DNA from: an uncultured Treponema sp.
GTDB taxonomy: Bacteria; Spirochaetota; Spirochaetia; Treponematales; Treponemataceae
DNA length: 64,000 nucleotides
Direction of reading: 5' to 3'
Assembly (NCBI GenBank): GCA_946186185.1
Contig: CAMHMJ010000012.1
Coordinates: 4,220 to 68,219 of the forward strand
Shown here: piece after piece, positions 1,448-23,447 of the stretch
Numbering within the stretch: the stretch's first letter is position 1
Layout: every line of letters begins with the position of its first letter
Translations under genes and position numbers: made by a program
The notes under the pieces: model-generated
Databases searched by the model: none
What the model was told of the DNA's origin: nothing
Seen by the model: only the letters and a program-made list of their open reading frames with translations

Positions 1448-1621
1448 AAAAATTGGCTCTCAGCGGGAACCCCGATTGAAAAACGGCAGTACCGCTTCAC
1501 AGTCTCGAGTGTTTTGCCCAATGGGCTGTCACGAGTCGCTTCACAAGTGCCAATGCAAGCATTGTCATTTGCTCCGCTTTGTCGCGCCTTCAAAACGAAA
1601 ACCCCGCTTACGCCAATTTTT
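1448..1621 (+). repeat. Copy A of a ~174-bp dispersed element with imperfect terminal inverted repeats (MITE-like or structured-RNA-like)
   Basis: It begins aaaattggctctcagcggg and ends ccccgcttacgccaatttt, so the termini are reverse complements (AATTGGC-N3/4-AGCGGG). A second copy lies in the opposite orientation at 20811-20984. The 3' 109 nt differ at only 3 positions by manual alignment. Confidence 0.85.
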
Positions 1622-1667
1622 ATTTATTCTTTTAAAGTCGAAATTATGGCTTATAAATTATAATGCT

Positions 1668-3277: not shown

Positions 3278-3381
3278 TTTTTCCTCCATTTTTTTAAACA
3301 ACGTAGAAATATTATACAATAAATCAACAAATAATGGAAACAAATTTTACATTTATATAGAGTGTAAATTATTCAATCTTT

Positions 3382-7733: not shown

Positions 7734-7781
7734 TTAAGTTTAATTCTAGCAAAAAAATTATTTTTAGTGGAGTGTGAATTT

Positions 7782-8738: not shown

Positions 8739-8768
8739 AATGTAAATAAAGTAATAATATTTTGCATT

Positions 8769-9986: not shown

Positions 9987-9990
9987 GAAT

Positions 9991-10027
9991 AAAAAAGCCA
10001 TCGGATGAAAATCTGACGGCTTTTTTT
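9991..10027. terminator. Bidirectional intrinsic terminator between convergent genes
   Basis: An A-run, the stem AGCCATC / GACGGCT (one mismatch), then TTTTTTT. It lies between the stops at 9986 (+) and 10068 (-). Confidence 0.6.
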
Positions 10028-10067
10028 GATTACAGGATTTATTATCCTGCTGGCGGTGAGAACTCCG

Positions 10068-10994
10068 TTATTTTTTCTCCTCGGATTTGTTCTGTCCCTT
10101 AGTTTCCCCGTCGATGTACTGGGTTCCCGTAATTTTATCGATGACGATACTTACTTCTTCAATTAAAATGCCCGTATAAGACTCAATTTTGTCGATAATG
10201 TACTGCTGCATTTTATGAATTTTACCGGTAAGCTGGGTTCCAAAAGGAACGTCGATAATGATCGAGATTTTATAGCCCCGGTTATCGGTACGGATTGTCA
10301 TTTTTTTTACACGAACGGCACTGTCGGTTTCGTATACGCAGTGCATTACCATCTGGGTGAGGGCAGCTTCCGAAATTTCTATACGGCCTTTCTTTGAGAA
10401 TTCCGGCTGTACGATGGATTTTTCAAAAAGCTTTCCGGTGTTTTTGTCTTTTTTAGAAAGGAATTTATTTTTTCGGAAAAAGACCTTAATTGAATTTGAA
10501 AAAATCTGAGGATAACTCTGCTTTACTTCAATCGAAGGAACCGGAATTACGTGTTTTCCTTCAATCTGGCGGGATTTAATTGCCTTTTCAATTTCTTCCC
10601 GTGTTGCAATTTCTTCAATGTGAATTATTTTCTGAGGCTGAGGAAGCTGAAGCCGGGTAGCAATTTTATTTACCATTTTTTCAGAAGTGCCCAGAATAAG
10701 GATTTTCTTGATTCTCGCTTTTTTCAGGGCCTTTGCAATTTCATCCCGGTGATCTTTATCGTCAAAAAGGGCAACCCTAACGGCACCCATATAAGTCTTT
10801 TCCCGTTTTGCGCTGTGTCCGGCTAAAATTTTATCATTCTGAATCAAAAGCCCGTCATCAATAATTGAATCGATTCCGTATTTTTCTGCAAGCAGCTTTG
10901 AGCGGAAGCTTTTTCCTGTTCCGCTTTCCCCAACCAGCGCAAATACAGAAACTGGTTTTAGTCCTTTGATTATGTCCTGAATAAAATTGCCCAT
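10068..10994 (-). CDS. P-loop NTPase/kinase-like domain fused to a C-terminal Asp23/Gls24-like domain
   Basis: Walker A VGESGTGKS at the N-terminus, with DDGLLI resembling small nucleotide kinases. The C-terminal ~110 aa (ISEAALTQMVMHCVYETDSAVRVKKMTIRTDNRGYKISIIIDVPFGTQLTGKIHKMQQYIIDKIESYTGILIEEVSIVIDKI) follows the Asp23 alkaline-shock-protein pattern. Confidence 0.6.
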   Translation of the reverse strand: MGNFIQDIIKGLKPVSVFALVGESGTGKSFRSKLLAEKYGIDSIIDDGLLIQNDKILAGHSAKREKTYMGAVRVALFDDKDHRDEIAKALKKARIKKILILGTSEKMVNKIATRLQLPQPQKIIHIEEIATREEIEKAIKSRQIEGKHVIPVPSIEVKQSYPQIFSNSIKVFFRKNKFLSKKDKNTGKLFEKSIVQPEFSKKGRIEISEAALTQMVMHCVYETDSAVRVKKMTIRTDNRGYKISIIIDVPFGTQLTGKIHKMQQYIIDKIESYTGILIEEVSIVIDKITGTQYIDGETKGQNKSEEKK

Positions 10995-11003
10995 ATTCCC
11001 AAA

Positions 11004-12074
11004 TTATAAACCTAACTCATTTATTTCGCAATTATTCGCATTTAAAAATTTCTTAAAGTTTTCAGGAAGGGGAGCCTTAATGTATTCCGGTAGGGAAAAG
11101 GGATTTTCCGGGAAAGTAAGCTTATAAGCGTGCAAAAATAATTCCTGCCCCAGCCCCTCAGACTTTTTTCCGCCGTAAGCTGTGTCCCCGTAAAGGGGAA
11201 AGCCGTGTAAAGCGCTCATGCTTCTTATCTGGTGGGTGCGGCCGGTGTGAATAACAAAGCGAACAAGAGACAGCTCCGTATTTTTGTAAATAAAACTTTT
11301 AACCGGATAGATATCGGTTTCAGCAATTTTTGAACCGGAAGAATCCCGGGAGGAAGAAGCCTTTACGGTGTGAAAGTTTTTTTCATCTCCGGAAGGGTCG
11401 GATTCTTTTTCTATGTAGTCCCTCCAGCTTTCACTTTTTGTAACGGTTCCTTGAACAAGGGCAAGGTATTCTTTTTTTATTTCGTGATTTTTGATCTTTT
11501 CTGAAAACCACACAGCCCCTTTGTGGCTCCAGGAAAAAGCAAGAAGGCCTGTGGTCCGTTCATCAAGGCGGTGAAGGGGGCCTGGAGAAAAGGAAAGGGA
11601 ATTGTTCCCGTTTTTTGAAAAATAATTTTTTACAAAAGCGTCCAGACTGTCCTTTTTCCCATGAACGGAATAACCGTAGGGCTTGTTTATAATCAGTAAG
11701 TCGTCATTTTTTAGTACTATTTCAAAAGGAAAATCCTGAGTTGAGGAAGAAGAGTTTTGTCCGCCGGAAAATTCTGCAGCTTTTCCGGAGACTCCCTTGT
11801 TTTTGCTGATGTTTCCAGTCTGGTCGCCCACAGCCATTGTCTGTACTGCACCTGAAGCACTGTATTTTTCTGCAATGAAAACAGGAATATCTATCTTATC
11901 GCTGGAAAAAACCCGGGTTTCGGATTTTGCTTTTTTATCATTTACACGGATCAGGCCTTTTCTTATCAGGGAATAAATTTCTGAAAGGGAAGCAGAAGGC
12001 AGAAGAACCCTTAAAATTTTATCGAGCCTTCGCGAATCATCATTTTCTCCAGCGTAAAAAGATTTAAATTCCAT
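11004..12074 (-). CDS. RluA-family pseudouridine synthase with N-terminal S4-like domain
   Basis: RLDKILRVLLP S4 region, catalytic HRLDERTTGLLAFS, and GRTHQIRSMSALHGFPLYGDTAYGG. The start is set at the internal Met (MEFKSFYAG), which removes the overlap with the divergent gene. Confidence 0.85.
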   Translation of the reverse strand: MEFKSFYAGENDDSRRLDKILRVLLPSASLSEIYSLIRKGLIRVNDKKAKSETRVFSSDKIDIPVFIAEKYSASGAVQTMAVGDQTGNISKNKGVSGKAAEFSGGQNSSSSTQDFPFEIVLKNDDLLIINKPYGYSVHGKKDSLDAFVKNYFSKNGNNSLSFSPGPLHRLDERTTGLLAFSWSHKGAVWFSEKIKNHEIKKEYLALVQGTVTKSESWRDYIEKESDPSGDEKNFHTVKASSSRDSSGSKIAETDIYPVKSFIYKNTELSLVRFVIHTGRTHQIRSMSALHGFPLYGDTAYGGKKSEGLGQELFLHAYKLTFPENPFSLPEYIKAPLPENFKKFLNANNCEINELGL

Positions 12075-12155
12075 AAGGCAATTATGAAAGAAAATGTTGT
12101 TTGGAGCAATATTAACACTAGTAAAAATCATCATATAATGGTAAAATTAAAAATC

Positions 12156-12635
12156 ATGTTTGTGAATTTCAGTGAGCAGATAAAAGGTTTCATAACAAGT
12201 CCTGTTTTACTTGCAGGACTTTCCAGCTGGCTTTCAGCCCAGTTTATAAAAACCGTAATAAATATACTTTATGGAAGAATTCATTCAATTCCTGAATTAC
12301 TTGAAAACCTGTTCTGGAAAACCGGCGGACTTCCGTCCAGTCATTCCGCTCTGGTAACTTCAATTTGTACTACCATCGGTTTCAGAAATGGAATTACGAG
12401 CGATATTTTTATGCTTGCCCTTGCTTTTCTTATGGTAACGGTACGGGACGCTCTTGGAGTACGCCGTTCAAACGGAATTCAGGCTAAAAAAATCAACGAA
12501 ATAGGCAGAAACCTTAGCGAAAAGGAAATCATCGAATATAAACCTCTCAAGGAGGTAAACGGGCATACTCCAATGGAAGTAACCCTCGGCTGTGTTCTGG
12601 GAATGGTTCTGGGACTCGCTTTTTCGATTTTTTAA
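12156..12635 (+). CDS. Divergent PAP2 / DUF212 (YuiD-like) membrane protein
   Basis: SSWLSAQFIKTVIN, GGLPSSHSALVTS and RDALGVRRSNGIQAKKINE match the acid-phosphatase/vanadium-haloperoxidase-related DUF212 pattern. The start was chosen at ATG 12156; 12138 is also possible, and the track start at 12084 would overlap the divergent gene. Confidence 0.7.
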   Translation: MFVNFSEQIKGFITSPVLLAGLSSWLSAQFIKTVINILYGRIHSIPELLENLFWKTGGLPSSHSALVTSICTTIGFRNGITSDIFMLALAFLMVTVRDALGVRRSNGIQAKKINEIGRNLSEKEIIEYKPLKEVNGHTPMEVTLGCVLGMVLGLAFSIF

Positions 12636-12637
12636 AA

Positions 12638-14029
12638 ATGTCTGCTCTTAAACGTTATATTTTACCTCTTTTCATTATACTTTCTTCTCTGCTGTGCATT
12701 AAGATTTTTAAGGTAACTCAGATTCAAAAGCTCTGGTCAGGATATTCCCTTATGTATGTTCAGAAAAATGCGGATATGCAGAAGGTTTATCAGGTTCTGG
12801 AGGAATATTCCGTAAAAAATTACAGCTGTCTTGAAAATCAGTTTGTTCCCTTAAATCTTGTGGATCAAAGCCCTGAGGTTCGTCTTTCTGCCTCATTTTT
12901 AAATGACTCTGATTCCTATCTTTCCAGAAGAAATTCATATTTTTTTGACCGTGATAAGCTGTATACGGTTTTCTATATCCCGGAAAAATATTCTTCAAAG
13001 CTTCCAAAGGTTCTTAGTGCTCTTGGAAGGGAAGGTATTAAGGGCGGGGTAAACGCAAATGCTAATTATCCATTTATCTGTCCTCTGGTTATTTTTCTGT
13101 TTGCAATACTTTTAGTTTTTTATTCAGAGGATAAAATCAGGGCAGTTCTCTATTTTTCCCTTCCCGTATATTTTTCTTTTTTTGTGCCGGTGTACCTTGT
13201 CTGTTCCAGCCTGTGCCTTTTCATGTACGCCTCCTTTCTTTCCTTCAGAATATTGGAAAGAAAAAATACTTTTGAGGTTTTGAAAAAATCCAGAATTTTT
13301 GTAATCCTCCTTTCAGTTTCCTTAGTTTCCATGCTGTTTACTTCATTTAAGGCAGTGCTTCTTTATATTCTTTTGCTGCTTTCCTGTGCCGCAGTTCTTT
13401 ATCTATATAAAAATATTCTTTCTGCATTTGAAAATGCAAAATATTCCTTTGTTCCCGTAAAAATCCGGACTGCAAATATGATTCGCCTGGTTACAAAAAA
13501 ATCCCGGTTCTGCCTTCTTTTGATGGGAATTTTTGTTTCCTTTGTTTTCCTGTTTGCATTAATTTCCATGAAGGTTTCATTTCCGTCTTCAGATGATGGT
13601 GTAAAGCTTCCTTCTGCGGTTTCTCTTGAAAAATCCCTTCCGGATCTGGGAGATTTTATTGACTGGAGATGGGAAGCTCTGATTTATCCATATGTTTCCC
13701 TTAATTCAAGTGAAACTATTTTACCAAAAGACGGAAATACTGTATATTTTCCTAGATTTACAGAAGAAAACGGAAAAATAACTCAGAGTTTGACATCTAT
13801 TACTTTTAATCAGAAGTTTAAGGAAGATTCTGTTGACTCCCTGGAAAGCCTTGATTATCCGGCCATCGAAAAGGTAATCCGGAAGCAGGGCAGAATGAGA
13901 CCAGGATTTACATCGGCTGCAAATGCCAGACCATCTTTTGTTTCAGTTATTCTGATGACTATTTGTTCTATTTCTTCCTTTTTTATGTACTTTATTATTA
14001 CAAACCCAAAATTTCGCGGGAGGTTTTAA
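12638..14029 (+). CDS. Hypothetical polytopic membrane protein (no recognisable family)
   Basis: 463-aa ORF with an N-terminal anchor, a soluble ~130-aa segment, at least 6 hydrophobic helices and a second soluble segment. It starts 3 nt after the upstream stop and ends immediately before the RnfC-like start. Confidence 0.65.
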   Translation: MSALKRYILPLFIILSSLLCIKIFKVTQIQKLWSGYSLMYVQKNADMQKVYQVLEEYSVKNYSCLENQFVPLNLVDQSPEVRLSASFLNDSDSYLSRRNSYFFDRDKLYTVFYIPEKYSSKLPKVLSALGREGIKGGVNANANYPFICPLVIFLFAILLVFYSEDKIRAVLYFSLPVYFSFFVPVYLVCSSLCLFMYASFLSFRILERKNTFEVLKKSRIFVILLSVSLVSMLFTSFKAVLLYILLLLSCAAVLYLYKNILSAFENAKYSFVPVKIRTANMIRLVTKKSRFCLLLMGIFVSFVFLFALISMKVSFPSSDDGVKLPSAVSLEKSLPDLGDFIDWRWEALIYPYVSLNSSETILPKDGNTVYFPRFTEENGKITQSLTSITFNQKFKEDSVDSLESLDYPAIEKVIRKQGRMRPGFTSAANARPSFVSVILMTICSISSFFMYFIITNPKFRGRF

Positions 14030-15427
14030 GTGACAGTTTTTCCGAATATACATGGAATTAAAAAAAGTTCCTATAAAAAATGTGTAAATGGTTTTATTCC
14101 AAAAACTGTATTGATTCCTCTAAGACAGGATTTTGGTCCTGAATGTAATCTCCTGGTAAAGGAAGGGGAAAGCGTAAAAGAAGGACAGCTGATTGCCCAA
14201 AGCTCATGGGAAAACGGAAAAACCATGAGTTGTGTTTACTCTCCCATTCCCGGAATTGTAACCGGAAAAGAGCTCTGTGTCTGTCCGGATGGAAAAATGT
14301 CTCATGCCGTAAGAATTAAGCTGGGGGGCAGCTTTTCTTTTCTTGGTAAGAAAAAAAATCCTCTGGATATAACCCTCATGAGACAGAATGAATTAATTCA
14401 GGAAATCGCCATAAAGGGTATTGTGAACACCTTTACGGCTCAGGAACCGACTCTTCTTTCTGATGATATCAGTAAAGCCGTTGAGAAAAAAGCCAAGCTT
14501 CTTGTAGTGCGGCTTTTTGATGAGGATTCTTCCAGATATACGGACAGTCTTCTTGCCAATTTTTATACCGCCGAAATTTTTGAAGGTGCAAAAATAGCCC
14601 TTAAAGCTCTGAACGGTGACGGAATCATTTTTGTTACGGAAAAGGATTTTGTAAAGCCGGAAAATCTTTCCCTCAAGGTTCCCTGTTTTTTTGTTCAGGC
14701 TAAAACCCGGCTTTATCCTTCAGGATATAAAAATCAGTTAATTTCCCTGGTAAAATCCCAGGTGAAGGACGAAACCTTTTCTAAGGTTTCCCGTAATTCT
14801 CTTTTCACAGATTCTTCCACAATGCTTGAGCTTTCAAGAACCATTAATTCCGGCTTCCCGTCAATTGACCGGTATGTTCTGGTTGGTGGAGAATGCCTGA
14901 ATGTTTCAGGACTGATTAAGGTTGTTCACGGAACTTCCTTCAGAGATTTAGCAGAACAGTGCGGAGGACTTGTAAAAAGACCGGGAACCATTCTTGTAAA
15001 CGGCTATGTTTCAGGTTTTTCTACGATTACACTGGATACTCCGGTTACAAAATACGTAAAATCAGTGACCTTCCTGCCGGAATCAAAGGTTCCGGACCAG
15101 CGCATGTCTGTCTGTATCCACTGCGGAGCCTGCAGACGGGTGTGCCCTGAAAAATTAAGTCCGGATTTAGTATATTCCCGCTTAAAACAAATCGAAAATC
15201 TTCCTGAGATTTACGAAAAATCCAGGGTATTTTGCATCGACTGTTCTCTCTGTAATTCCGTGTGTCCGTCCCGCTTGCCTCTTAGTCAGACCATCTATAA
15301 AAAGCAGGAAAACAAGGTAAAACAGAACATTTCAACTGCCGGTAAGGAAACCGGGGAAACGGTTTCTCAAACTGTTTCTCCTTCCGTGGAAAATTCAATA
15401 ATTAAGGAAAAGAAAATTGAAAAATAA
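14030..15427 (+). CDS. rnfC: RnfC-like subunit (barrel-sandwich N-domain, degenerate nucleotide-binding domain, SLBB-like region, two 4Fe-4S motifs)
   Basis: VLIPLRQDFGPECNLLVKEGESVKEGQLIA and YSPIPGIVTG match the RnfC N-domain. CIHCGACRRVCP and CIDCSLCNSVCP are ferredoxin motifs. Where canonical RnfC has GIVGxGGAGFPT and NGAECEPY, this protein has GIVNTFTAQEPT and RLFDEDSSRY. GTG start directly after the upstream stop. Confidence 0.65.
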   Translation: MTVFPNIHGIKKSSYKKCVNGFIPKTVLIPLRQDFGPECNLLVKEGESVKEGQLIAQSSWENGKTMSCVYSPIPGIVTGKELCVCPDGKMSHAVRIKLGGSFSFLGKKKNPLDITLMRQNELIQEIAIKGIVNTFTAQEPTLLSDDISKAVEKKAKLLVVRLFDEDSSRYTDSLLANFYTAEIFEGAKIALKALNGDGIIFVTEKDFVKPENLSLKVPCFFVQAKTRLYPSGYKNQLISLVKSQVKDETFSKVSRNSLFTDSSTMLELSRTINSGFPSIDRYVLVGGECLNVSGLIKVVHGTSFRDLAEQCGGLVKRPGTILVNGYVSGFSTITLDTPVTKYVKSVTFLPESKVPDQRMSVCIHCGACRRVCPEKLSPDLVYSRLKQIENLPEIYEKSRVFCIDCSLCNSVCPSRLPLSQTIYKKQENKVKQNISTAGKETGETVSQTVSPSVENSIIKEKKIEK

Positions 15428-16496
15428 AAATAAACCAAGAAATATTCTTGTTCGTCCTTATACCTATATTACTCAGTCCGTTGGAACAGATTCCTTAAAA
15501 ATGTGCGTCCTGCTTTTAATTCAGGTTATTCTTCTTCTGGTTTCGGCGTCTTACAAGGCAGTTTTCGTAATTTTGACAAGTCTTGCATCTTCCGTAATTG
15601 CTGATATCCTTGATAAAAAGTTTCAGAATAAGGCTGAAGCCTCAGATGCCTTTTCAATTCAGATAAGTGCCGTTCAGGGCTTGATAATCGGTTTCCTGCT
15701 TCCTGAAAGCTATCCTCTGGTAACTGTATTTTTTGTGACACTTTTTACAATGGGCGTGTACAAATACATGTTCGGCGGCTATTCAAGAGCCTGGCTTAAC
15801 CCCAGCATAGTAACCGTTTTAATTTTATGGACCATCGGAAGCCGTTTTTTTCCGGATTTTCTTGTTTCCTACGATATTCTTTCAATGAGAAATCCAAGTC
15901 AGCTACTGATAGAAAGCGGCGCTTTCCCGAATATGAAATTTGACACACAGATTACTGATGTCCTTAATAATTCCGTTTTCAGTCTTTTTAAGGTTTCCGT
16001 ACCTGAAGGTTATGTTTCTATGTTCTGGGATACGGGTTCCGTAATTCCTGCCTTCCGTTTTAATTTTCTTACAATCATTTCTTCTATTGTTCTTTTTGGA
16101 GATGATTATGTAAAGGGAATAATCGCCGCCTGTTTCCTTGGAGTATATTTTCTGCTTATCAGATATATTTCTCCTCTGTTTTTTGGAACCTTCCAGATTA
16201 AAGGAGACATAGTCTTGGCATTGCTTACCAGCGGAACCCTGTTTTTTGCTACTTTTATCATCGGCTGGTACGGAACAGCACCTGCTACTGTACCCGGAAA
16301 AATAATTACCGGTGTTCTGGCCGGAATCGCAGCATTCTTTATTGCAGGACCGGGAACTTCTCCTGTAGGACTTGTTTTTACCGTTATGATTTCAAATATT
16401 TTCTCCCTTGTAATAAAGCAGTTTGAAGAGCATAACGACAGAATCCGAATAGAAAAGCTTATACAGAGAAAGGAGGCCCTTGTAAATGCCGATTAA
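15417..16496 (+). CDS. rnfD: RnfD-like polytopic membrane subunit
   Basis: KYMFGGYSRAWLNPSIVTVLIL resembles KHLYGGLGxNxFNPA, and LLTSGTLFFATFI resembles the C-terminal SGA(T) helix region. TTG start overlaps the RnfC-like stop. The position I align with the flavinylated Thr reads SGAF (residues 167-170). Confidence 0.6.
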   Translation: MKNKNKPRNILVRPYTYITQSVGTDSLKMCVLLLIQVILLLVSASYKAVFVILTSLASSVIADILDKKFQNKAEASDAFSIQISAVQGLIIGFLLPESYPLVTVFFVTLFTMGVYKYMFGGYSRAWLNPSIVTVLILWTIGSRFFPDFLVSYDILSMRNPSQLLIESGAFPNMKFDTQITDVLNNSVFSLFKVSVPEGYVSMFWDTGSVIPAFRFNFLTIISSIVLFGDDYVKGIIAACFLGVYFLLIRYISPLFFGTFQIKGDIVLALLTSGTLFFATFIIGWYGTAPATVPGKIITGVLAGIAAFFIAGPGTSPVGLVFTVMISNIFSLVIKQFEEHNDRIRIEKLIQRKEALVNAD

Positions 16497-16968
16497 AAAT
16501 TCTATGGATGCAAAGGAATTCTGGAGACTCTTCGGGCTTTTTTCTGCCGTTATTGTTGTTCTGTTTTTTTTGAATTTTGGCTTCATTAAACTGTCAAAAA
16601 GCTTCTGGGAAAAAGGTCTTAAAGAAAGCGTTCAGACAGTTCTGAATGAAAAATATCCGGATAAATGGAATGTAGGGGATTACAAAACAATAGATAATCC
16701 ATTTTATGCAAGTGCTGCTTCTTATATGATAGTATCCCGGGAAAACGGGAGAAAAGGGTACGCAGTAATTATCCGCACTCCGACCCTGTACGGTCCTTAT
16801 CCCGCTGTTTTTATCAAGCAGAAGGATTCTGATTTTGAATTTGTGGGTTATTCAGGTATTAAGGGCAGGGTAAAGTCCCTTATGGAAGAGCGAAAATCTG
16901 ATATATTTATTTCCTACTGGATTTCCCGCCTTCCTAAAATCTTGAATCTTGGAACGGAGGTAGAATAA
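16486..16968 (+). CDS. rnfG: RnfG-position small membrane-anchored protein (partial FMN_bind-like fold)
   Basis: It sits between the D-like and E-like genes, as in rnfCDGEAB operons. It has an N-terminal TM helix, and GYAVIIRTPTLYGPYPAVFIKQKDSDFEFVGYSG resembles the N-terminal half of the FMN_bind domain. No SGAT motif is present (YSGIKG instead). Assigned mainly by position. Confidence 0.4.
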   Translation: MPIKNSMDAKEFWRLFGLFSAVIVVLFFLNFGFIKLSKSFWEKGLKESVQTVLNEKYPDKWNVGDYKTIDNPFYASAASYMIVSRENGRKGYAVIIRTPTLYGPYPAVFIKQKDSDFEFVGYSGIKGRVKSLMEERKSDIFISYWISRLPKILNLGTEVE

Positions 16969-17579
16969 TGACACGAAAAGCAGTTGCAATTCATATGGCC
17001 CTTACCTGTGCAATGGCAGTTGCCTTACCGGGACGCTTTGCTTTTGCCCTCATTGTTGCTTTTGAACTCTGTTTTTTAATGCTTACAGGAACTTTATTCC
17101 GTTCACTTTTAAAAATATTAAAGATGAAGGAACTTAAGAGCATCTGTCTATGCACATTTATTGTTTCCATGACAATGCTGTTCCGGGAAATAGTATGTCT
17201 TTTAATGCCTGAAACTGCGCTCCAGCTGAGTTTTGTTTTTTATCTTCCGGCTATAAGTACTTTTTCCAGCGTTTTCCTTTTTGATGAACAGAATCTAGTT
17301 TTGAAGGACGAATTAAAAGTAAACCTTGTTCCTGTCCTTGTTTTTTCTGCATATATTTTAATTCAAAATCTTTTGCGGGATATTTTAGGCTACGGAACCT
17401 TTACGCTTCCTGCAAAAGGAAAAATGCTGGAAGTTGTATTGATAAAATCTGAACGGATTTCTTTCCTGTCATTTTTTGCTACAATCCCTGGTGCAATTAT
17501 GATTTCATCTCTGGTTATGGCATTTTACCTGACCTTCGAAAATCGTATGGAAATCTTAAAAAAGGCGGATATAAAATGA
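16968..17579 (+). CDS. rnfE: RnfE-like (Rnf-Nqr family) membrane subunit
   Basis: LRDILGYGTFT and FFATIPGAIMISSLVMAF parallel RsxE IREILGNGTLF and LLAMLPPGAFIGLGLMLA. About 6 TM helices. TAATG overlap with the upstream gene. Confidence 0.5.
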   Translation: MTRKAVAIHMALTCAMAVALPGRFAFALIVAFELCFLMLTGTLFRSLLKILKMKELKSICLCTFIVSMTMLFREIVCLLMPETALQLSFVFYLPAISTFSSVFLFDEQNLVLKDELKVNLVPVLVFSAYILIQNLLRDILGYGTFTLPAKGKMLEVVLIKSERISFLSFFATIPGAIMISSLVMAFYLTFENRMEILKKADIK

Positions 17580-18136
17580 TTTTTACATTTTTCTTTTATA
17601 CAGTTTTTTCTTCCGCAGTTTTGCTTTACGGGATCGGATTAAACACTGCCACAATCGTTTGTGATTCACTAAAAGAACTGACTCTTCCTCTGGTAAAGAT
17701 TGTGGGAACCGTTATTTCTTCTACCGTTCTTTCCTGGATTATTATACGCCATATTCTGATACCGCTTCATATTGTTCTGATGTACCCCCTGATTTCAATA
17801 CTTATTTATTTTGCTTTAAGTGTGTTTTTCGAGGTTTTAATCAGAATAACCACTGGTAAAATAACTTCTGAATTCAATTTTTCATTCCTCATAACACTTC
17901 TTGCCCTGAATGAAAGTACAAGCATTCTTGATGTACTCATGATTTCTTTTTCCGCAATGTGTTCTTTCTTTCTGCTGTTACCTCTTATGTATTCGTTAAA
18001 GAAGAGGATCGATGTTTTGAGTGAAAGCCAGATTTACGGCAATAAAAAAGCTCTTGTCTTTCTTTCTGTTGCTCTTTTAATTTTAATTTTATCTTTTGCA
18101 AATGTTTCCTGGCTGAATCCGGGGGTTTTAAAGTGA
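17576..18136 (+). CDS. rnfA: RnfA-like (Rnf-Nqr family) membrane subunit
   Basis: SWIIIRHILIPLHIVLMYPLISILIYFA parallels RsxA [27 protein letters not shown]. 186 aa with about 6 TM helices. ATGA overlap with the upstream gene. Confidence 0.5.
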   Translation: MIFTFFFYTVFSSAVLLYGIGLNTATIVCDSLKELTLPLVKIVGTVISSTVLSWIIIRHILIPLHIVLMYPLISILIYFALSVFFEVLIRITTGKITSEFNFSFLITLLALNESTSILDVLMISFSAMCSFFLLLPLMYSLKKRIDVLSESQIYGNKKALVFLSVALLILILSFANVSWLNPGVLK

Positions 18137-18756
18137 TTTTAAAAATTATTCTCTTAGTTTTATTGATGATTATTCTGGCTCTTCTTCTTTTTTTCCTTTC
18201 CTGTATTCTGGTTCCAGCAGTAAAGGAGCAGACACGGATCAAAGATAATATTATGTTTTCTAAGATTGAACACAAATTTGATAAGCTTAATGAAAACGAA
18301 ATTTCCGGCATTTCTGAAGAGAATCATGAAAAAATGAAAGCCGTTGTTTTATGTTCCTGCAACAAAAACTTCCAGCGACAGAAAAATGTAAAAGTCCTTT
18401 CCAGCCAGAGCTGCAGTCTGCTTTACAGTCAGTATGGTTCTGTGAATTTCTGTTCGTTTTCATGTCTGGGCATGGGGGACTGTAAAAAAATCTGTCCTCA
18501 GAAGGCCATTGAAATAAAAAACAGTACAGCCGTAATCACAGAGCTTTGTTCAGGCTGCGGAAAATGCGTTTCCGCCTGTCCAAAGGGAATAATAAAGCTT
18601 GTTCCGGTTACTCAGGAAAAAATTGTTGTATGTTCAAATCCGGACGACACATTTACAACCTGTTCTGCTTTCAAAAATGAAGAAAAAATTGAGCGTTCCT
18701 CAAAAAAACGCTTTAAAATGTGGCAATATTGCTATAAACTTTTAACCAAAAAATAG
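18133..18756 (+). CDS. rnfB: RnfB-like iron-sulfur subunit (N-terminal TM helix plus ferredoxin-type domains)
   Basis: AVVLCSC...CSLLYSQYGSVNFCSFSCLGMGDCKKICPQKAIEI...CSGCGKCVSACPKGIIKLVP...VVCSN follows the RnfB pattern (C.YGCLG.GDC...CP..AI ... C.GCG.C...CPK.li.l). GTGA overlap with the upstream gene. Confidence 0.6.
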   Translation: MILKIILLVLLMIILALLLFFLSCILVPAVKEQTRIKDNIMFSKIEHKFDKLNENEISGISEENHEKMKAVVLCSCNKNFQRQKNVKVLSSQSCSLLYSQYGSVNFCSFSCLGMGDCKKICPQKAIEIKNSTAVITELCSGCGKCVSACPKGIIKLVPVTQEKIVVCSNPDDTFTTCSAFKNEEKIERSSKKRFKMWQYCYKLLTKK

Positions 18757-18757
18757 T

Positions 18758-20767
18758 ATGTCTGTTTATGTATGTTTCAGCTTAAAGGCCTCTCTGATTG
18801 ATAAAAAATCAACCGATGTTCTTGAAAAGGAATATCAGTCCGTCTTCAAGCCGATTTTAAAATGTATGCTTTCTCATCCAAACTTAAGGATTTCCTTTTC
18901 TTTTACGGGAATTCAGATGGAATACTACAGACGAAAGCATTCTGAAATGTTCGAAATCTTACATGAACTGATACAGCGAAAACAGGCAGAAGTTTTAGGC
19001 GGCGGTTACTACGATCCGGTTTTCCCGTTGCTTTTCCCTCAGGATAGAACCGGCCAGATAGATTTACTTTCTTCTTCAATTCGTGAAACCACCGGAAAAA
19101 GGCCCCGCGGACTTTCATTGTGTGCAAGCGGCTGGGATTCCGGAATGCTTCCAAGCCTTTCATCCTGTGGCATGGAATATGTTCTCCTTGATGAATCCTT
19201 AATTCCTCCTGAAAAAAACAAGTCCATTCCACTTATCATGAGCGACAAGGGAAAAAGCATAATAATTCTTCCTGTATTTACCTCGATTAAAAATTCCTGC
19301 TTTGAATCAGCTGCTTCTTTTATAGAACAGGCGGATATTTTTGTAAAAAAAGGAATGAAAAATCTCCCTTCCCAGGAGCTTGCTTCAGTCTGTACCAGCG
19401 GGATAACCCTTCAGTTTTCTACGGATGAGTTTAAAACTCTTCTTGAACGGAAATTTTTCGAAGAAATATCAGATATTGTTTCAGCAGAGGAAAGTGAATA
19501 TAAAACAGGAACCTGTTTTCAGTTTGTGAAAGCTTCATTTTACAAGGAACCGGTTTACATCGCTGCCGGACTTTCCAAAGAAATAAGCCAGTGGGCTGTT
19601 AAACCATATCAGGCTGTAAAAAACTTAAAAAACAGCCTTACAATTTTTGACTTTTTTGAACTTTATCCTCAGAGCAGGGCGCTTTACGATAAAATGCTTT
19701 ATGTAAGTCTTCTGGTAAGCCAGAGTCACGGGGATAAAGCCAGAAAAAAGAACTCCAGGGAACAGCTCTGGGAAGCCCAGAATGGAAACGGATTTATCTG
19801 TACTTCCAAGGGCGCATTTGTAAATTCCAGCTTCCGCCAGAATGCCTACAGAATCCTGACGGATGTAGAAAAAACCTTAAGAAGCTGCAGCGAGTTTACG
19901 CCTTCCGTTTCAAGTTTTGATTACAACTCCGACGGTCTGAACGAATATGTCTGCCGTATGGATAACTATTTTTCCGAAATATCCCTTTTAGGCGGAGCCG
20001 TGCGTGAGTTGTGCCCCCTTCAGTCTTCCGGGAACTATGCAGACAGCCTTTCCCGCTCAATTGAGTTCGAAGGTGTAAGCGACGGTTATGACCGGGGACT
20101 TTTCGTGGACCATCTTTTTACTGAAGAAGAATTATCTTACTATCTGGATAATCTTCCAAGCGGTAACGGAATTTTCTCAAAGCTCTATTATTCTGAGGTA
20201 AAGTTTAATGCTTCCAGAAAGGAAATTTCCCTTGAAGTAAGTGCACTTTACAGAAAAAAGCAAAAGGTTACCCTCAGAAAAAAATATGTTCTTACAGCCA
20301 GCGGAATGATGATTCAGTATATTTTGAAAAATGAAAGCGATTCAAAACTTTCTGCAAAATTTGCCGTTGAATCAAGCTTTGCCCAGACCAATTTCCAGAA
20401 CACAGATTTTTCTGCCTACAAGCTGGAAATTATTCTTGACGGAGAAAAGCGGGAAGTGGACACAAAAAGCTCTTCAAAGGAGCTTAATTCCCGGGGAACC
20501 TTGAATAATGTTCAGGCATATTATCTTACTGATACAGATAATGAAATATCTTTTATGTTTGAACCGAACGAAGAAGCCGATCTTTCCTTTGTTCCGATTA
20601 TATTTAACCGCCCGGAATACATGACCGGAGAACTTATGAGTGCCGGAATGACTTTTGCAAATACCATGATCTGGAATGTAGAACTTGAAGCCGGCATGGA
20701 AATGGAAAAAACCATAAATTTCAGCATCTACAGCCAGCACAAAAAACGCACCCGGGTGAAGAAATAA
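18758..20767 (+). CDS. GH57-like (alpha-amylase / 4-alpha-glucanotransferase-type) domain protein, apparently lacking the catalytic signatures
   Basis: AEVLGGGYYDPVFPLLFPQDRTGQIDLL and the overall length and architecture resemble GH57 plus its C-terminal DUF domains. The HQP, WxxE and YWHG.FGG signatures are not seen (VCFSLKAS, GLSLCASGWD, EAQNGNGFICTSKG). It starts 2 nt after the RnfB-like stop. Confidence 0.5.
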   Translation: MSVYVCFSLKASLIDKKSTDVLEKEYQSVFKPILKCMLSHPNLRISFSFTGIQMEYYRRKHSEMFEILHELIQRKQAEVLGGGYYDPVFPLLFPQDRTGQIDLLSSSIRETTGKRPRGLSLCASGWDSGMLPSLSSCGMEYVLLDESLIPPEKNKSIPLIMSDKGKSIIILPVFTSIKNSCFESAASFIEQADIFVKKGMKNLPSQELASVCTSGITLQFSTDEFKTLLERKFFEEISDIVSAEESEYKTGTCFQFVKASFYKEPVYIAAGLSKEISQWAVKPYQAVKNLKNSLTIFDFFELYPQSRALYDKMLYVSLLVSQSHGDKARKKNSREQLWEAQNGNGFICTSKGAFVNSSFRQNAYRILTDVEKTLRSCSEFTPSVSSFDYNSDGLNEYVCRMDNYFSEISLLGGAVRELCPLQSSGNYADSLSRSIEFEGVSDGYDRGLFVDHLFTEEELSYYLDNLPSGNGIFSKLYYSEVKFNASRKEISLEVSALYRKKQKVTLRKKYVLTASGMMIQYILKNESDSKLSAKFAVESSFAQTNFQNTDFSAYKLEIILDGEKREVDTKSSSKELNSRGTLNNVQAYYLTDTDNEISFMFEPNEEADLSFVPIIFNRPEYMTGELMSAGMTFANTMIWNVELEAGMEMEKTINFSIYSQHKKRTRVKK

Positions 20768-20810
20768 GAAAATTCATGCAGGACGAATTCGGAGTTCTGA
20801 AAATCAATGC

Positions 20811-20984
20811 AAAATTGGCGTAAGCGGGGTTCTTGTTTTGAAGGCGCGACAAAGCGGAGCAAATGACAATGCTTGCATTGGCACTTGTGAAGCGACTCGT
20901 GACGGCCCATTGGGCAAAATATTCAGCCACCGCGAAGCGGTACTGCCGTTTTTCAAAACAAGGTTCCCGCTGAGAGCCAATTTT
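20811..20984 (-). repeat. Copy B of the ~174-bp TIR-bearing dispersed element, inverted relative to copy A
   Basis: The reverse complement aligns end to end with 1448-1621. The 109-nt core has 3 mismatches, and two short internal patches have diverged. Confidence 0.85.
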
Positions 20985-21096
20985 GGAATTTAAATTTTAC
21001 TCTCCGGATTTATCCTCGTATATTTTCTCCCTATCTTCCATAAAACCCTTAAAATCTTTATAATATTTTCACATTTTTTTACAGGAAGTATTACCG

Positions 21097-23424
21097 ATGA
21101 AAAGAAGACTTATTACTTCAGCATTGCCTTATGTAAACAATATTCCTCACCTTGGAAATCTTATTCAGATGCTTTCCGGCGACGTATTTGCCCGTTTCTC
21201 AAGAAGCCGGGGCTACGATACACTTTATATCTGCGGAACCGATGAATACGGAACAGCAACAGAAACAAAAGCCCTTGAAGAGAAGAAGACTCCGCGGGAG
21301 CTCTGCAACTATTACTATCAGGAACACACAAAAATTTACAAGTGGTTCCACATCAATTTTGATAAATTCGGACGCACCTCAAATGAGCAGTGTACTGAAA
21401 TAACCCAGTCGCTTTTTAACGACCTTGATAAAGCAGGTCTTATTCACGAACACACCAACAAGCAGCTTTTCTGTCCAAAGTGCAATATGTTCCTTGCAGA
21501 CCGCTATGTAGACGGAACCTGTCCGAAGTGCGGAAGTGAAAAAGCCCGTGGAGACCAGTGTGATGACTGCGGAAGCCTTCTGGATCCTGTAGAACTTAAG
21601 AATCCAAGATGCCACACCTGCGGTTCAACTCCTGAAGTTCGTGAAACAAAGCATCTTTACATCGACCTTCCAAAACTTTCTGATAAATTAAACGACTGGA
21701 TGGAAAAGACCAGTGTAGAAGGAAAATGGGCTGACAACGCCATCAATGTTACAAAAGCATGGATTCGTGACGGCTTGAACGAGCGTGCAATTACCCGTGA
21801 CTTAAAGTGGGGAATTCCTGTTCCAAAGGCAGGCTATGAAGACAAGGTTTTCTATGTATGGTTCAATGCACCAATCGGATATCTTTCCATTACAAAACAG
21901 CTGGCTGACGAGCTTACAAAATCCGGCCGTGAAAGCTTTGACTGGAAAAGCTGGTGGATTCCTTCAGAAAGTGAAGAAGCAAAGGGTAAGGAAGAAGTGA
22001 AACTTTTCCAGTTCATCGGAAAGGACAATATTCCGTTCCACACCGTAATTTTCCCTTGTACACTTCTTGGGTCTCCTCATGACTGGACAAAGCTCTACCA
22101 CATGTCTTCAACTGAATACATGAACTACGAAAGCGGAAAATTCTCTAAAAGTCGTGGAGTAGGTGTATTTGGTACGGACGCAATTGAGACCGGAATTCCA
22201 AGTGATGCATGGCGTTTCTATATTTTCTACAACAGACCTGAAAAACAGGACTTCCAGTTCACCTGGAAAGATTTCATGGAAAAGATGAATTCCGAACTCA
22301 TCGGAAACCTTGGAAATCTTGTAAACAGGACCCTGCTTTTCGTAAATAAGTATTATGAAGGAAAAATCCCTGACGCTCCGGTAGATGAAGAACTCTGGAA
22401 GGAAGTTCGTGCCCTTGAAGAAAAAATTACTGAAGAACTTGAATGGGCAAACCTTAAGGACGCATTCCATCTTTGTTTTGAAATTGCCGACATCTGTAAC
22501 AAAAGGTTCCAGGCAGCAGAGCCGTGGAAGACACGCACAACGGAGCCTGAAAAAGCTGCAAGCCTCATTCATAACCTGTGTTATGTAATTAAAGACCTTA
22601 TGATTATGATGAACCCGTACATGCCGGAATACACTCAGAAAATTATGAGCTATTTTGGAAAGGCTGTAAGGGAAACTAAAGTAGGGGCTCCGGTTATCGA
22701 AGGACTTACCTGGGACGATTTGGGAAAAACTGAAGGTCTTTGTGAAGTTTCTCCTGTTGAAGTATTCTTCCGTCCTCTTGATGTAAAAACAATGACCAGC
22801 TTCCGTGAAAAATTCAGCGGTACTCAGAATGCCCAGAATCAGAAGGAAAATAAGAAAGAAGGCAAGAAAGAGCAGAAAAAAGCTGCAAAAAAAGAAGAGC
22901 CGGAAATTCTTCCTTTTGAAAAACAGGCAGAACATTTTAATAAAAATATCCGCCTTAAGGTAGCAAAGGTTGTAAAAATCGAAAGAAACCCTGATTCAGA
23001 TAAGCTTTATATTGAACATCTTGATGACGGAAGCGGGGAAGACCGTGTAATTCAGTCAGGTCTTGTTCCGTATCTTAAGGAAGATGAAATCTTAGGAAAG
23101 AATGTAATTATTGCGGACAATCTTGCTCCTCGAAAGATGCGCGGAGTTGAAAGCCGGGGAATGCTTCTTGCAGCCGATTACACAAAGGCCGACGGTTCAG
23201 AAGGTGTTGAACTCCTTACTGCTCCATGGGCAAATCCGGGAACTGTTGTTGTTCTTGAAGGCGAAGCAGATTCTTCTGAAAAGCCTGAAAACATTGATGC
23301 AGGACTTTTCTTCCAGATTGAAATTAAGGTTCAGGATAAAAATGTTACTGTAGGCGGAAAAAAACTTTCTGCCGATGGAAAAACTCTTACAACAGAACTT
23401 ACCGTAAACGGTGATGTTCACTAA
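21097..23424 (+). CDS. metG: Methionine--tRNA ligase with C-terminal EMAP/Trbp111-type tRNA-binding domain
   Basis: ALPYVNNIPHLGNL (HIGH-type motif), KFSKSRG (KMSKS motif), zinc knuckles CPKCN..CPKCG / CDDCG..CHTCG, a Lys-rich linker, and C-terminal VAKVVKIERNPDSDKLYIEHLDDG. Confidence 0.95.
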   Translation: MKRRLITSALPYVNNIPHLGNLIQMLSGDVFARFSRSRGYDTLYICGTDEYGTATETKALEEKKTPRELCNYYYQEHTKIYKWFHINFDKFGRTSNEQCTEITQSLFNDLDKAGLIHEHTNKQLFCPKCNMFLADRYVDGTCPKCGSEKARGDQCDDCGSLLDPVELKNPRCHTCGSTPEVRETKHLYIDLPKLSDKLNDWMEKTSVEGKWADNAINVTKAWIRDGLNERAITRDLKWGIPVPKAGYEDKVFYVWFNAPIGYLSITKQLADELTKSGRESFDWKSWWIPSESEEAKGKEEVKLFQFIGKDNIPFHTVIFPCTLLGSPHDWTKLYHMSSTEYMNYESGKFSKSRGVGVFGTDAIETGIPSDAWRFYIFYNRPEKQDFQFTWKDFMEKMNSELIGNLGNLVNRTLLFVNKYYEGKIPDAPVDEELWKEVRALEEKITEELEWANLKDAFHLCFEIADICNKRFQAAEPWKTRTTEPEKAASLIHNLCYVIKDLMIMMNPYMPEYTQKIMSYFGKAVRETKVGAPVIEGLTWDDLGKTEGLCEVSPVEVFFRPLDVKTMTSFREKFSGTQNAQNQKENKKEGKKEQKKAAKKEEPEILPFEKQAEHFNKNIRLKVAKVVKIERNPDSDKLYIEHLDDGSGEDRVIQSGLVPYLKEDEILGKNVIIADNLAPRKMRGVESRGMLLAADYTKADGSEGVELLTAPWANPGTVVVLEGEADSSEKPENIDAGLFFQIEIKVQDKNVTVGGKKLSADGKTLTTELTVNGDVH

Positions 23425-23447
23425 TAGTTTCAAAGGCGTTTTTATCT

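Follow-up and report, generated by a model that had tools for sequence, protein, structure and literature searches.

What does a membrane complex do when it derives from a respiratory ion pump and nearly all of its electron-carrying sites are gone? This question is raised by a locus in a 64,000-nucleotide stretch of an uncultured Treponema sp. contig (the window). A sequence-only reading had described nine translationally coupled genes on the + strand at 12156-20767, six of them in rnfC-D-G-E-A-B order between a DUF212/M463 pair and a GH57-like gene. All the open reading frames lie at these coordinates and the layout is borne out. We argue that the complex probably does not perform the job currently assigned to it.

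The first gene (12156..12635) encodes a DUF212 protein, a divergent PAP2-family membrane phosphatase, and the second (12638..14029) M463, an orphan polytopic membrane protein of 463 residues. They are followed by the RnfC-like (14030..15427), RnfD-like (15417..16496), G-position (16486..16968), RnfE-like (16968..17579), RnfA-like (17576..18136) and RnfB-like (18133..18756) genes and, last, by the GH57-like gene (18758..20767). The successive junctions measure +2, 0, -11, -11, -1, -4, -4 and +1 nt, and the ribosome-binding sites are GGAGG-like. Ahead of the first gene, just 5' of its start, a promoter-like site on the + strand (TTAACA-16-TATAAT, 12112..12139) agrees with the consensus at 11 of 12 positions; it is the top such match in 11800-21200, to be read as a consensus match only. 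A divergently transcribed RluA-family pseudouridine synthase gene (11004..12134, - strand; PF00849, E=9e-30) holds the same position in about 60 loci, in L090 and, as TP0154, in T. pallidum, and is probably a conserved neighbour outside the system.

The nine-gene arrangement recurs in about 80 Treponema species and therefore did not arise by chance; gene order and intact reading frames are also found in a distant complete genome. It is a single operon, specific to Treponemataceae, whose ancestor was an rnfCDGEAB operon of the clostridial type. Such a cluster has been described before: Deka et al. 2015 (PMC4436053) reported T. pallidum tp0153-tp0147 as a noncanonical Rnf without flavinylation motifs, and the window carries its gut-treponeme counterpart. 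This identity and orthology are nearly certain, because family HMM scores and synteny, including the RluA neighbour, agree. TP0153 matches the DUF212 family HMM at E=4.6e-51, TP0152 the RnfC-like one with 187 bits and TP0147 the GH57-like one at E=2e-62; TP0150 is the sole match of the G-position HMM (E=1e-4). TP0151, TP0149 and TP0148 are the orthologues of the RnfD-, RnfE- and RnfA-like proteins, protein identity to T. pallidum being 13-37%. Gene order and the divergent neighbour are the same as in the window, whose cluster has both the 463-aa and B genes, whereas T. pallidum keeps the other seven genes only; no B-like gene was found in the tp0147-tp0154 run. Elsewhere, the RnfB-like gene is absent or truncated at 11 loci, and 4 lineages show gaps of 51-156 nt in its place. 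The RnfB-like and M463 genes are accessory and dispensable in some lineages; the core, still present in T. pallidum, comprises DUF212, the RnfC-, RnfD-, RnfE- and RnfA-like proteins, the G-position protein and the dead GH57-like protein.

The absence of M463 and B from T. pallidum and some other lineages, together with the housekeeping nature of the neighbours, could mean that no single system exists and that a degenerate remnant of Rnf simply shares its transcript with unrelated housekeeping genes (DUF212, M463 and GH57-like). We consider this improbable: about 80 species and T. pallidum preserve the DUF212-first, GH57-last order and the overlapping or abutting junctions, and invariant substituted residues are not expected of a relic. 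A decaying pseudogene cluster, which the missing cofactor motifs might suggest, is effectively refuted by the conservation data and has a very small probability. Each gene has 65-81 intact orthologues, without frameshifts or stops and with strongly conserved columns; the cluster persists in the reduced 1.1-Mb genome of T. pallidum, and TP0147, TP0150, TP0152 and TP0153 have entries in supplementary per-protein MS data tables.

Are the six core products Rnf subunits, as first proposed from alignment by eye? Profile comparison establishes Rnf homology for C, D, A and B and, remotely, for E; G has only its position and a weak match in structure in its favour. The RnfC-like protein matches PDB 7zc6_C at E=4.5e-34 and TIGR01945 with 170 bits, under the cut-off of 246. 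The RnfD-like protein matches Pfam PF03116 (E=1.2e-33), and its family aligns with the canonical RnfD profile (hhalign, 99.1%, E=4e-19), as does the RnfA-like family with RnfA (95.5%, E=1.6e-8). For the RnfB-like protein, the match to 7zc6_B (E=8e-21) covers residues 56-171 only. The RnfE-like proteins form a closed family (254 representatives among 1.8e9 proteins), aligned with the RnfE profile over 166 columns (63%, E=7e-5); 7 of 20 members weakly match Pfam Rnf-Nqr. The G-position protein has 160 residues, with a TM helix and a small beta-sheet domain; no Pfam or PDB sequence match was found, and hhalign to RnfG gives 9% (E=0.003). The best Foldseek matches of its AF2 model (pLDDT 80.9) are the RnfG chains 8rb9_G and 8ahx_G, weakly (E ~0.3, TM ~0.35), and it is probably a truncated RnfG relic.

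In canonical Rnf, electrons pass from ferredoxin through the RnfB clusters and the B8 cluster to the [2Fe-2S] centre between RnfA and RnfE, and on to the FMN of RnfG. From there they reach the FMN and riboflavin of RnfD, the two [4Fe-4S] clusters and FMN of RnfC and, finally, NAD+.

At the entry of this path, the RnfB-like protein combines a TM helix with ferredoxin-type clusters and lacks the N-terminal B8-type cluster domain, a feature missed in the sequence-only reading. It gave no PF04060 match, and 45 of 65 family members have no Cys in their first 65 residues, where canonical RnfB has 4-5. In the membrane, the RnfE-like protein does carry ISTFSS in place of its cysteine motif, with STFS opposite VTNC in hhalign. 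The RnfA-like cysteines are replaced as well, but the register first proposed, LALNEST for TNC, was wrong: hhalign sets TTNCA opposite SEFNF, beside a deletion of 11 residues in this family. No conserved Cys was found in either family, Cys reaching at most 46% in any column. In the RnfA-like protein, N23 takes the GLC position, and 71 of 78 members preserve E86, the counterpart of the ion-pair residue E88. For T. pallidum, where TP0148 and TP0149 are rich in Cys, an identity of about 20% leaves uncertain which residues fall in these columns.

Flavin sites are affected next. For the SGIK region of the G-position protein, no counterpart alignable to the RnfG SGAT was found, nor did the protein yield an FMN_bind match or a conserved C-terminal Ser/Thr. 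The RnfD-like protein indeed reads SGAF at the flavinylation motif: profile-profile alignment places SGAF-P opposite SQAT-P, and the Thr column is F/L/I/V/M in all 78 members (F170 in the window's protein). A near-invariant T180 (76/78) lies 10 residues past the canonical flavinylation site, without SGAT context; T. pallidum has Arg in this column. N128, the riboflavin Asn, is kept. The earlier reading had overlooked a Trp at the riboflavin Asp of RnfD: the D249-equivalent column is Trp in 68 of 78 members and Asp in none (W284 in the window's protein).

The RnfC-like protein retains its RnfC_N barrel and has a remodelled, non-FMN/NADH middle domain. Both replacements noted there hold in the alignment to 7zc6_C: at the GIVGxGGAGFPT motif, GIVNTFTAQEPT stands opposite GIVGMGGATFPT, and at NGAECEPY, RLFDEDSSRY stands opposite NAAECEPYLT. 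Throughout the family the glycine-rich FMN loop and the ExEP motif have become NTF and RLFDED, and N133-T134-F135, R161, D164, D166 and D172 are present in 74/74 members. The ferredoxin-type clusters of the C-like and B-like proteins are intact, all 8+8 Cys being invariant; those of the RnfC-like protein, in two [4Fe-4S] motifs, lie at residues 362-412, and an additional invariant Cys is found at position 289.

As judged from sequence, the ligands of the transmembrane electron path are missing across about 80 Treponema species: the B8 domain, the four RnfA/E Cys, the RnfG and RnfD Thr, the RnfD riboflavin Asp and the RnfC FMN/NADH loops. By the same measure, only the C and B ferredoxin-type clusters remain. 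The strong conservation of the substituted positions points to remodelling, not decay. Of the two readings first offered, an extremely divergent Rnf or a repurposed Rnf-derived complex, we favour the second; the substitutions are real and family-wide. Because the cofactor sites from B8 to the RnfC FMN/NADH region are replaced in this way, the treponemal complex is probably not a canonical ferredoxin/flavodoxin:NAD+ redox-driven ion pump. In A. woodii Rnf, mutating these same cofactor residues abolishes activity and growth, and the RnfB and RnfC clusters lie >30 A apart, which excludes an electron shortcut (PMC11889175).

The T. pallidum complex has nevertheless been modelled as a flavodoxin:NAD+ pump, and co-transcription of its operon was shown by RT-PCR (PMC4436053; PMC7512555). 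The model was motivated by need, since T. pallidum must reoxidise flavodoxin somehow (PMC7512555). To go on working with flavodoxin or ferredoxin, the pump would require flavins held non-covalently or attached cryptically, and NAD(H) bound at a non-canonical site. Deka et al. proposed that flavins may bind without a covalent link (PMC4436053), and motif loss does not prove cofactor loss; the riboflavin Asn and RnfC [4Fe-4S] motifs are in place. A flavin partner could also act in trans, given the T. pallidum flavin transferase Ftp, which has no known substrate (PMC4436053), and a separate lipoprotein annotated 'FMN-binding'. We nonetheless judge such a pump unlikely: it demands non-canonical replacements at six separate cofactor sites, among them an RnfC pocket rebuilt as NTF and RLFDED, a membrane [2Fe-2S] with no Cys available, and a path without the B8 domain in which B itself is missing from several lineages and has no counterpart in tp0147-tp0154. 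Single mutations at these sites suffice to abolish the A. woodii enzyme (PMC11889175). The extent of cofactor loss is new and argues against the flavodoxin:NAD+ pump model.

The DUF212 protein matches Pfam PF02681 (E=5.6e-38), and its signatures PSSHS, RDAxGVRR and GHTP are conserved (72 members). No Pfam or NCBIfam family was found for M463 and 28 family members; its AF2 model (pLDDT 81.4, pTM 0.59) runs from TM1 through an alpha/beta domain, a TM bundle and a second alpha/beta domain to a C-terminal TM, and its best Foldseek matches are RND transporters throughout, albeit weak (E at least 7e-3, TM ~0.2). The GH57-like protein matches PF03065 in its N-terminal domain (E=5e-20) and PF09095 (E=3e-9). 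Compared with 1K1W, E123 has become Ala and D214 Ser; in the family, A/G/C/Q/K/N/V occupy the nucleophile column and the acid/base position is mostly R/K. The suspicion that it is inactive is strengthened, both catalytic residues being gone in 75/75 members. Its gene is co-encoded at every cluster, always as the last of the Rnf-like operon.

Might the surviving clusters serve a membrane-anchored electron transfer at the cytoplasmic face, from ferredoxin or flavodoxin through the C-like (and B-like) [4Fe-4S] clusters to a new acceptor, with the membrane subunits as an anchor? Either the remodelled pocket of the RnfC-like protein or the GH57-like protein would bind this acceptor. The 16/16 invariant ferredoxin-type Cys and constant presence of the GH57-like protein fit this idea, and Cys289 with the acidic pocket suggests a new ligand site. 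It leaves unexplained, however, the strong conservation of five membrane subunits, T. pallidum included; no candidate acceptor is known and the GH57-like protein lacks catalytic residues. We regard it, too, as unlikely.

The best explanation overall, to which we give about an even chance, is an Rnf-derived membrane complex that has been remodelled and no longer works as a ferredoxin/flavodoxin:NAD+ pump. Our best guess at its mechanism, of low confidence, is a repurposed module for translocation across the membrane, capped on its cytoplasmic face by a redox sensor. The RnfD/E/A-like core would switch conformation as an alternating-access module, with R23 of the E-like and N23, E86 and E/D99 of the A-like protein, all charged or polar, now standing where the buried cluster was. 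The RnfC-like protein would sit over this core as the cap; its two [4Fe-4S] clusters and its remodelled, invariant acidic pocket (NTF...RLFD[ED]D) would serve for redox input or sensing and not as a through-conduit, and the dead GH57-like protein may be a ligand-binding or structural partner. The cargo may be a cation, or else a solute of the envelope linked to a lipid or glycan, the latter hinted at by the PAP2-type phosphatase, the RND-like protein and the GH57-like protein.

How does this complex compare with known systems? The T. pallidum literature tentatively counts TP0153, here a DUF212 phosphatase, as an Rnf subunit and keeps a flavin-based pump model; it reports neither TP0147 as a dead GH57 nor the loss of the RnfC NADH/FMN site, RnfA/E cysteines, B8 domain and riboflavin Asp. 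With canonical Rnf (A. woodii 9ERI, C. tetanomorphum 7ZC6, A. vinelandii 8AHX) the treponemal cluster shares the C-D-G-E-A-B order, homologous C, D, A, B and remotely E subunits, the RnfC N-terminal barrel with two [4Fe-4S] motifs, the RnfB ferredoxin-type clusters and the RnfD NP(A/S) Asn. It differs in its low identity (~22-26%, all NCBIfam scores far under cut-off), three additional conserved genes, and replaced ligands at the B8, AE1, FMN-G, FMN-D, riboflavin (Asp) and FMN-C/NADH sites. Na+-NQR (NqrA-F), whose NqrB/D/E are homologous to RnfD/E/A, carries the buried [2Fe-2S] and covalent FMNs missing here; the treponemal complex has no NqrF- or NqrA-type subunit, quinone chemistry or cofactor ligands. 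The GH57-like protein shares its architecture (GH57 barrel, middle domain, AmyA C-terminal beta-sandwich) with the T. litoralis 4-alpha-glucanotransferase 1K1W and with catalytic-residue-less GH57 'alpha-amylase-like' proteins, and differs from 1K1W in its substituted Glu nucleophile and Asp acid/base. Finally, the two-subunit Nqr/Rnf-like complexes (PMC11334425) are also Rnf-derived, with an RnfD-like subunit devoid of the flavinylation Thr; their RnfG-like subunit is still flavinylated, they carry an NAD-binding domain as a fusion and they dispense with A, E, C and B, whereas the treponemal system has lost its flavin sites and kept A, E and C.

The nine plus-strand open reading frames put forward by the sequence-only reading were all found, exactly where it had placed them. 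They comprise a DUF212 gene (12156-12635; Pfam PF02681), the gene of M463, an orphan 463-aa polytopic membrane protein without a family (12638-14029), homologues of RnfC (14030-15427) and RnfD (15417-16496), a 160-aa protein named for its place where RnfG is expected (G-position; 16486-16968), the RnfE-like E-position protein (203 aa; 16968-17579) and RnfA-like A-position protein (186 aa; 17576-18136), both assigned by profile comparison, an RnfB homologue (18133-18756) and a GH57-like gene (18758-20767; Pfam PF03065). The successive junctions measure +2, 0, -11, -11, -1, -4, -4 and +1 nt, and the genes are preceded by GGAGG-like ribosome-binding sites. The top promoter-like match of the region, with 11 of 12 consensus positions, lies at 12112-12139, which favours 12156 over 12084 as the first start codon. 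Base composition is ordinary (about 39% G+C), and the Rfam search gave no match in the operon or nearby.

We compared families of 65-81 sequences per gene, drawn from 80 related Treponema loci, with canonical profiles built from E. coli rsx and seven diverse rnf operons. As a source of canonical operons we used the 'plasmids' collection, in which several entries turned out to be entire chromosomes under a plasmid label (E. coli, 4.8 Mb; K. pneumoniae, 5.4 Mb; Aeromonas, 4.9 Mb; Acetoanaerobium, 2.6 Mb; Fusobacterium, 2.1 Mb), a point to bear in mind about the quality of that resource.

The profile HMM search suggested by the sequence-only reading detects DUF212, RnfC_N with dicluster motifs, NQR2_RnfD_RnfE, Fer4 and GH57 with the AmyA C-terminal domain; Pfam and NCBIfam hardly register the proteins at the G, E and A positions. 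All curated NCBIfam cut-offs for rnfC, rnfD, rnfA, rnfB, rnfE and rnfG are missed, and by far: 170 bits against 246 for rnfC, 55 against 207 for rnfD, 27.6 against 68.7 for rnfB (TIGR01944) and 16.5 against 240 for RsxA, with zero matches for the E- and G-position proteins. The RnfC-like protein is nevertheless an RnfC homologue, with the N-terminal barrel, SLBB domain and two [4Fe-4S] motifs (PF13375, E=8e-12). It aligns end to end with RnfC of C. tetanomorphum, A. woodii and A. vinelandii (E=4.5e-34 to 1e-24), best over residues 13-424 with chain 7zc6_C (E=4.5e-34). The RnfD-like protein has the NQR2_RnfD_RnfE fold (PF03116, 117 bits against a cut-off of 27.7) and two segments matching RnfD in solved structures; in the RnfB-like protein the match to RnfB structures starts at residue 56, with nothing before. 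Against solved-structure sequences the G-, E- and A-position proteins give no significant match, and for the G- and E-position proteins PDB sequences yielded nothing, whether searched pairwise or with profiles.

Comparison of family with family by hhalign reaches further: D matches RnfD (99.1%, E=4e-19), B matches RnfB over the ferredoxin domain only (98.7%, E=1.6e-16), A matches RnfA (95.5%, E=1.6e-8), E matches RnfE (63%, E=7e-5) and G barely matches RnfG (9%, E=0.003). As modelled by AlphaFold (pLDDT 80.9), the G-position protein has two helices and a five-stranded sheet besides a long transmembrane helix; RnfG chains head its Foldseek matches among 350,542 chains, at weak scores (E about 0.3, TM about 0.35). 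Judging from this model, the protein is probably a truncated RnfG relic.

The operon is strongly conserved. In a survey proposed by the earlier reading, practically every locus with sufficient flanking sequence retains the complete nine-gene order; in the same loci a divergent RluA gene also stays beside the operon, and metG often follows downstream. The order and the RluA neighbour recur in L090, a distant complete genome. The E-position family is closed, with 254 representatives among 1.8 billion proteins, and its named members are all Treponema or Treponemataceae. At least four lineages, T. socranskii among them, lack the RnfB-like gene altogether, with gaps of 51-156 nt between their A-position and GH57-like genes; in further lineages it is shortened. 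Decay of the cluster into pseudogenes was rejected on this conservation. A second, canonical rnf operon was found neither in the window nor in the 20-kb loci.

The wider surroundings (hydrolase_4, PolyA_pol and others up to RluA on one side; MetRS and FemAB on the other) are also common to the window (7767-12134 and 21097-24791) and L090 (1-5192 and 13714-17287), which places the locus in the stable chromosomal backbone and not in an island. That the chromosome is a spirochaete's is confirmed within the window by a homologue of Borrelia P83/100 (1709-3343, minus strand; PF05262, E=5e-118). At 10068-10994 (minus strand), a P-loop protein of 308 aa (GESGTGKS) belongs to no Pfam family at E<=1e-5; L090 has an unannotated 289-aa gene at the same place beside RluA, and the protein may be a conserved orphan neighbour. 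The 275-aa, low-complexity, Phe/Leu-rich reading frame antisense within metG (22108-22935, minus strand) is most likely spurious. Finally, a structured element of about 175 nt occurs in two intergenic copies more than 90% identical, one between the GH57-like gene and metG (20811-20985, plus strand), the other between a tRNA and the P83/100-like gene (about 1470-1645, minus strand). It carries the terminal inverted repeats AAAATTGGC...GCCAATTTT and arms of 20 nt, and its predicted RNA fold has a dG of -81.7 kcal/mol (z = -4.6), with one stem position altered on both sides between the copies. The element has no Rfam match and is missing at the GH57-like/metG position in L090; candidate explanations are a repeat of the MITE/REP type and a family of small RNAs or terminators.

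The structure of A. woodii Rnf provides the list of cofactor ligands, whose mutation abolishes activity and growth; in it the clusters of RnfB and RnfC lie more than 30 Å apart, so that in canonical Rnf electrons must cross the membrane (PMC11889175). Measured against this list, the substitutions described by the sequence-only reading proved to be family-wide, which supports its view of a divergent or repurposed Rnf. Its motif registers held for C, D and E and failed at the second A-like site.

In the RnfC-like protein the FMN/NADH loops (GxGGAGFPT and NxAECEPY) are indeed replaced and read GIVNTFTAQEPT and RLFDEDSSRY. The replacement residues N133-T134-F135 and R161-L-F-D164-[ED]-D166...D172 are each present in 71-74 of 74 members, and the score against Complex1_51K (14.7 bits) is below the cut-off of 31.2. 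The flavinylation threonine of RnfD (S-G/Q-A-T) is likewise gone: its column holds Phe in 49 sequences, Leu in 13, Ile in 10, Val in 4 and Met in 2, hence another residue in 78/78. This register, SGAF-P opposite SQAT-P, was obtained by hhalign with the canonical profile of eight sequences; it overturned an alignment with E. coli RsxD alone, which had put S186 (LNNS; Ser or Thr in 52/78) in the place of the threonine. Cryptic flavinylation at the near-invariant T180 is unlikely too, as this residue is outside an SGAT context and is Arg in TP0151, the T. pallidum counterpart.

The flavin site of RnfG is missing from the G-position family: Pfam scans of 28 members gave only noise and no FMN_bind match, no Ser or Thr is conserved near the C-terminus, and the NqrC/RnfG-type flavinylation motif is missing, as it is in T. 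pallidum. For SGIK, equated with SGAT by the sequence-only reading, the alignments offer no matching segment. The [2Fe-2S] cysteines of RnfA and RnfE, also reported as lost, have no counterpart: in neither the 78 A-like nor the 81 E-like sequences does Cys exceed 46% of any column. Opposite the cysteines stand N23 and N101 in the A-like protein and S100 in the E-like one, and 11 residues are deleted from the A-like family at the TTNC segment; profile-profile alignment rejected LALNEST as the register of TNC. The ferredoxin-type clusters of C and B are intact as claimed, with eight invariant cysteines in each family. What the RnfB-like protein lacks is the membrane-proximal [4Fe-4S] domain (cluster B8, PF04060 region): there is no PF04060 match, and residues 1-65, which contain 4-5 Cys in canonical RnfB, are free of Cys in 45/65 members.

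Judged from these alignments, the operon is Rnf-derived, genus-wide and strongly conserved, and at six independent cofactor sites other conserved residues have taken the place of the ligands. We infer that with these sites replaced the canonical U-shaped electron path cannot run, and that the complex is therefore unlikely to be a ferredoxin/flavodoxin:NAD+ pump. The chief alternative is the working pump of the published model, with non-canonical flavin binding. Among the riboflavin ligands (N123 and D249 in A. woodii) Asn is kept in 77/78 sequences, a point in its favour; at the other position Asp never occurs, and 68/78 have Trp. T. pallidum moreover possesses Ftp, a flavin transferase with no known target there, and a 15-kDa lipoprotein annotated as 'FMN-binding protein', TP0171 (TPANIC_0171; supplement file 3 of PMC10600179), a candidate Ftp substrate that could supply flavin to the Rnf-like complex in trans. 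Set beside the replaced ligands, these points leave us regarding such a pump as improbable.

The GH57-like protein carries a GH57 domain (PF03065, 72.4 bits against a cut-off of 21.2; 1K1W, E=2.4e-17) and, as had been suspected, is predicted to be inactive: catalytic E123 and D214 (1K1W numbering) read Ala and Ser in the window. Across the family the Glu nucleophile and Asp acid/base are missing in 75/75 members and other invariant residues are kept; the acid/base column is mostly Arg or Lys. The DUF212 protein (PF02681, 130 bits against 26.5) belongs to a family that keeps the PAP2 catalytic signatures PSSHS, RDAxGVRR and GHTP. M463 has no sequence family, a Pfam scan of 28 members yielding noise only. 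Its AlphaFold model (pLDDT 81.4) may resemble the RND half-repeat fold of TM1, a periplasmic ferredoxin-like domain and TM2-6, the best Foldseek matches being mostly RND pumps mixed with PII-like SbtB chains, all at weak scores (E=7e-3 to 0.2, TM 0.17-0.21).

Returning to the question of the pump, it is possible, short of probable, that a respiratory redox pump was converted wholesale to a non-redox or merely redox-sensing machine, keeping the Rnf architecture without a transmembrane electron path and acting on a cargo together with the dead GH57, the PAP2 phosphatase and, in the majority of species, the RND-like protein. More speculatively, and with considerable doubt, the D/E/A-like core would persist as an alternating-access membrane module, with the RnfC-like protein as a redox-sensing cap and the dead GH57 as a binding partner. 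Just as speculatively, the PAP2, RND-like and GH57-like partners would hint that the cargo is a lipid or glycan of the envelope.

The cluster as an object is not new. Deka et al. (2015) named T. pallidum tp0147-tp0153 a 'noncanonical Rnf', co-transcribed, with TP0152 as RnfC, TP0151 as RnfD, TP0149 as RnfE-like and flavinylation motifs missing (PMC4436053); later papers placed a flavodoxin:NAD+ pump in the energy model of T. pallidum (PMC7512555). For T. pallidum we relied on the protein database of the proteomics supplement to PMC10600179, both for sequences and for annotations, and there TP0152 and TP0147 are partial; the species is neither among the 80 loci nor among the named cluster members behind the family counts. 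Its genes run TP0154 (RluA), TP0153 (DUF212), TP0152 (RnfC-like), TP0151 (RnfD-like), TP0150 (155 aa), TP0149 (197 aa), TP0148 (192 aa) and TP0147 (DUF1926/GH57-like). Each of TP0153-TP0147 ranks first in the search with the corresponding family HMM, ahead of all canonical Rnf subunits, which together with the common RluA neighbour establishes gene-by-gene orthology. Identity with the treponeme families is 13-37%; in TP0151 the SGAFP loop is deleted, and at about 20% identity T. pallidum columns are uncertain.

Apparently unreported until now are how far the cofactor loss extends, that the GH57 is dead, that TP0153 is a DUF212 protein, that the RnfB-like protein and M463 are optional, and that conservation is genus-wide; taken together, these findings call the accepted functional assignment into question. 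For the syphilis spirochaete, the bioenergetic model depends on this operon as a flavodoxin:NAD+ ion pump (PMC4436053, PMC7512555). Residues essential by mutagenesis for Rnf electron transfer are all missing genus-wide, which makes the pump model sharply testable and probably false. Were wholesale conversion true, T. pallidum, whose only Rnf-like genes are tp0147-tp0153, would have no Rnf-type energy conservation, and the 'flavin-centric' model would need replacing. Annotation pipelines label the C and D genes 'RnfC' and 'RnfD', and reconstructions crediting treponemes with Rnf energy conservation from these labels alone warrant rechecking; one Treponematales metabolic reconstruction invokes an Rnf complex. 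The operon offers a clean natural case of a respiratory complex that has shed its several cofactors yet stays under strong selection with new partners, useful for studying how respiratory machines get repurposed.

Treponemes are not mentioned in a 2025 review of RNF/NQR. Another non-standard Rnf/Nqr arrangement occurs on Ilyobacter polytropus pILYOP01 (5995-9850), a hybrid cluster of RnfD, an FMN-binding protein, NqrD, an Rnf-Nqr protein and a 2Fe-2S NqrF-like protein, with no RnfC-like gene annotated directly upstream. The two-subunit 'Nqr/Rnf-like' systems of the flavinylation literature differ in arrangement from the treponemal operon. Its orthologue in T. pallidum is a seven-gene core without M463 and the RnfB-like protein, whereas the operon in the window has both.
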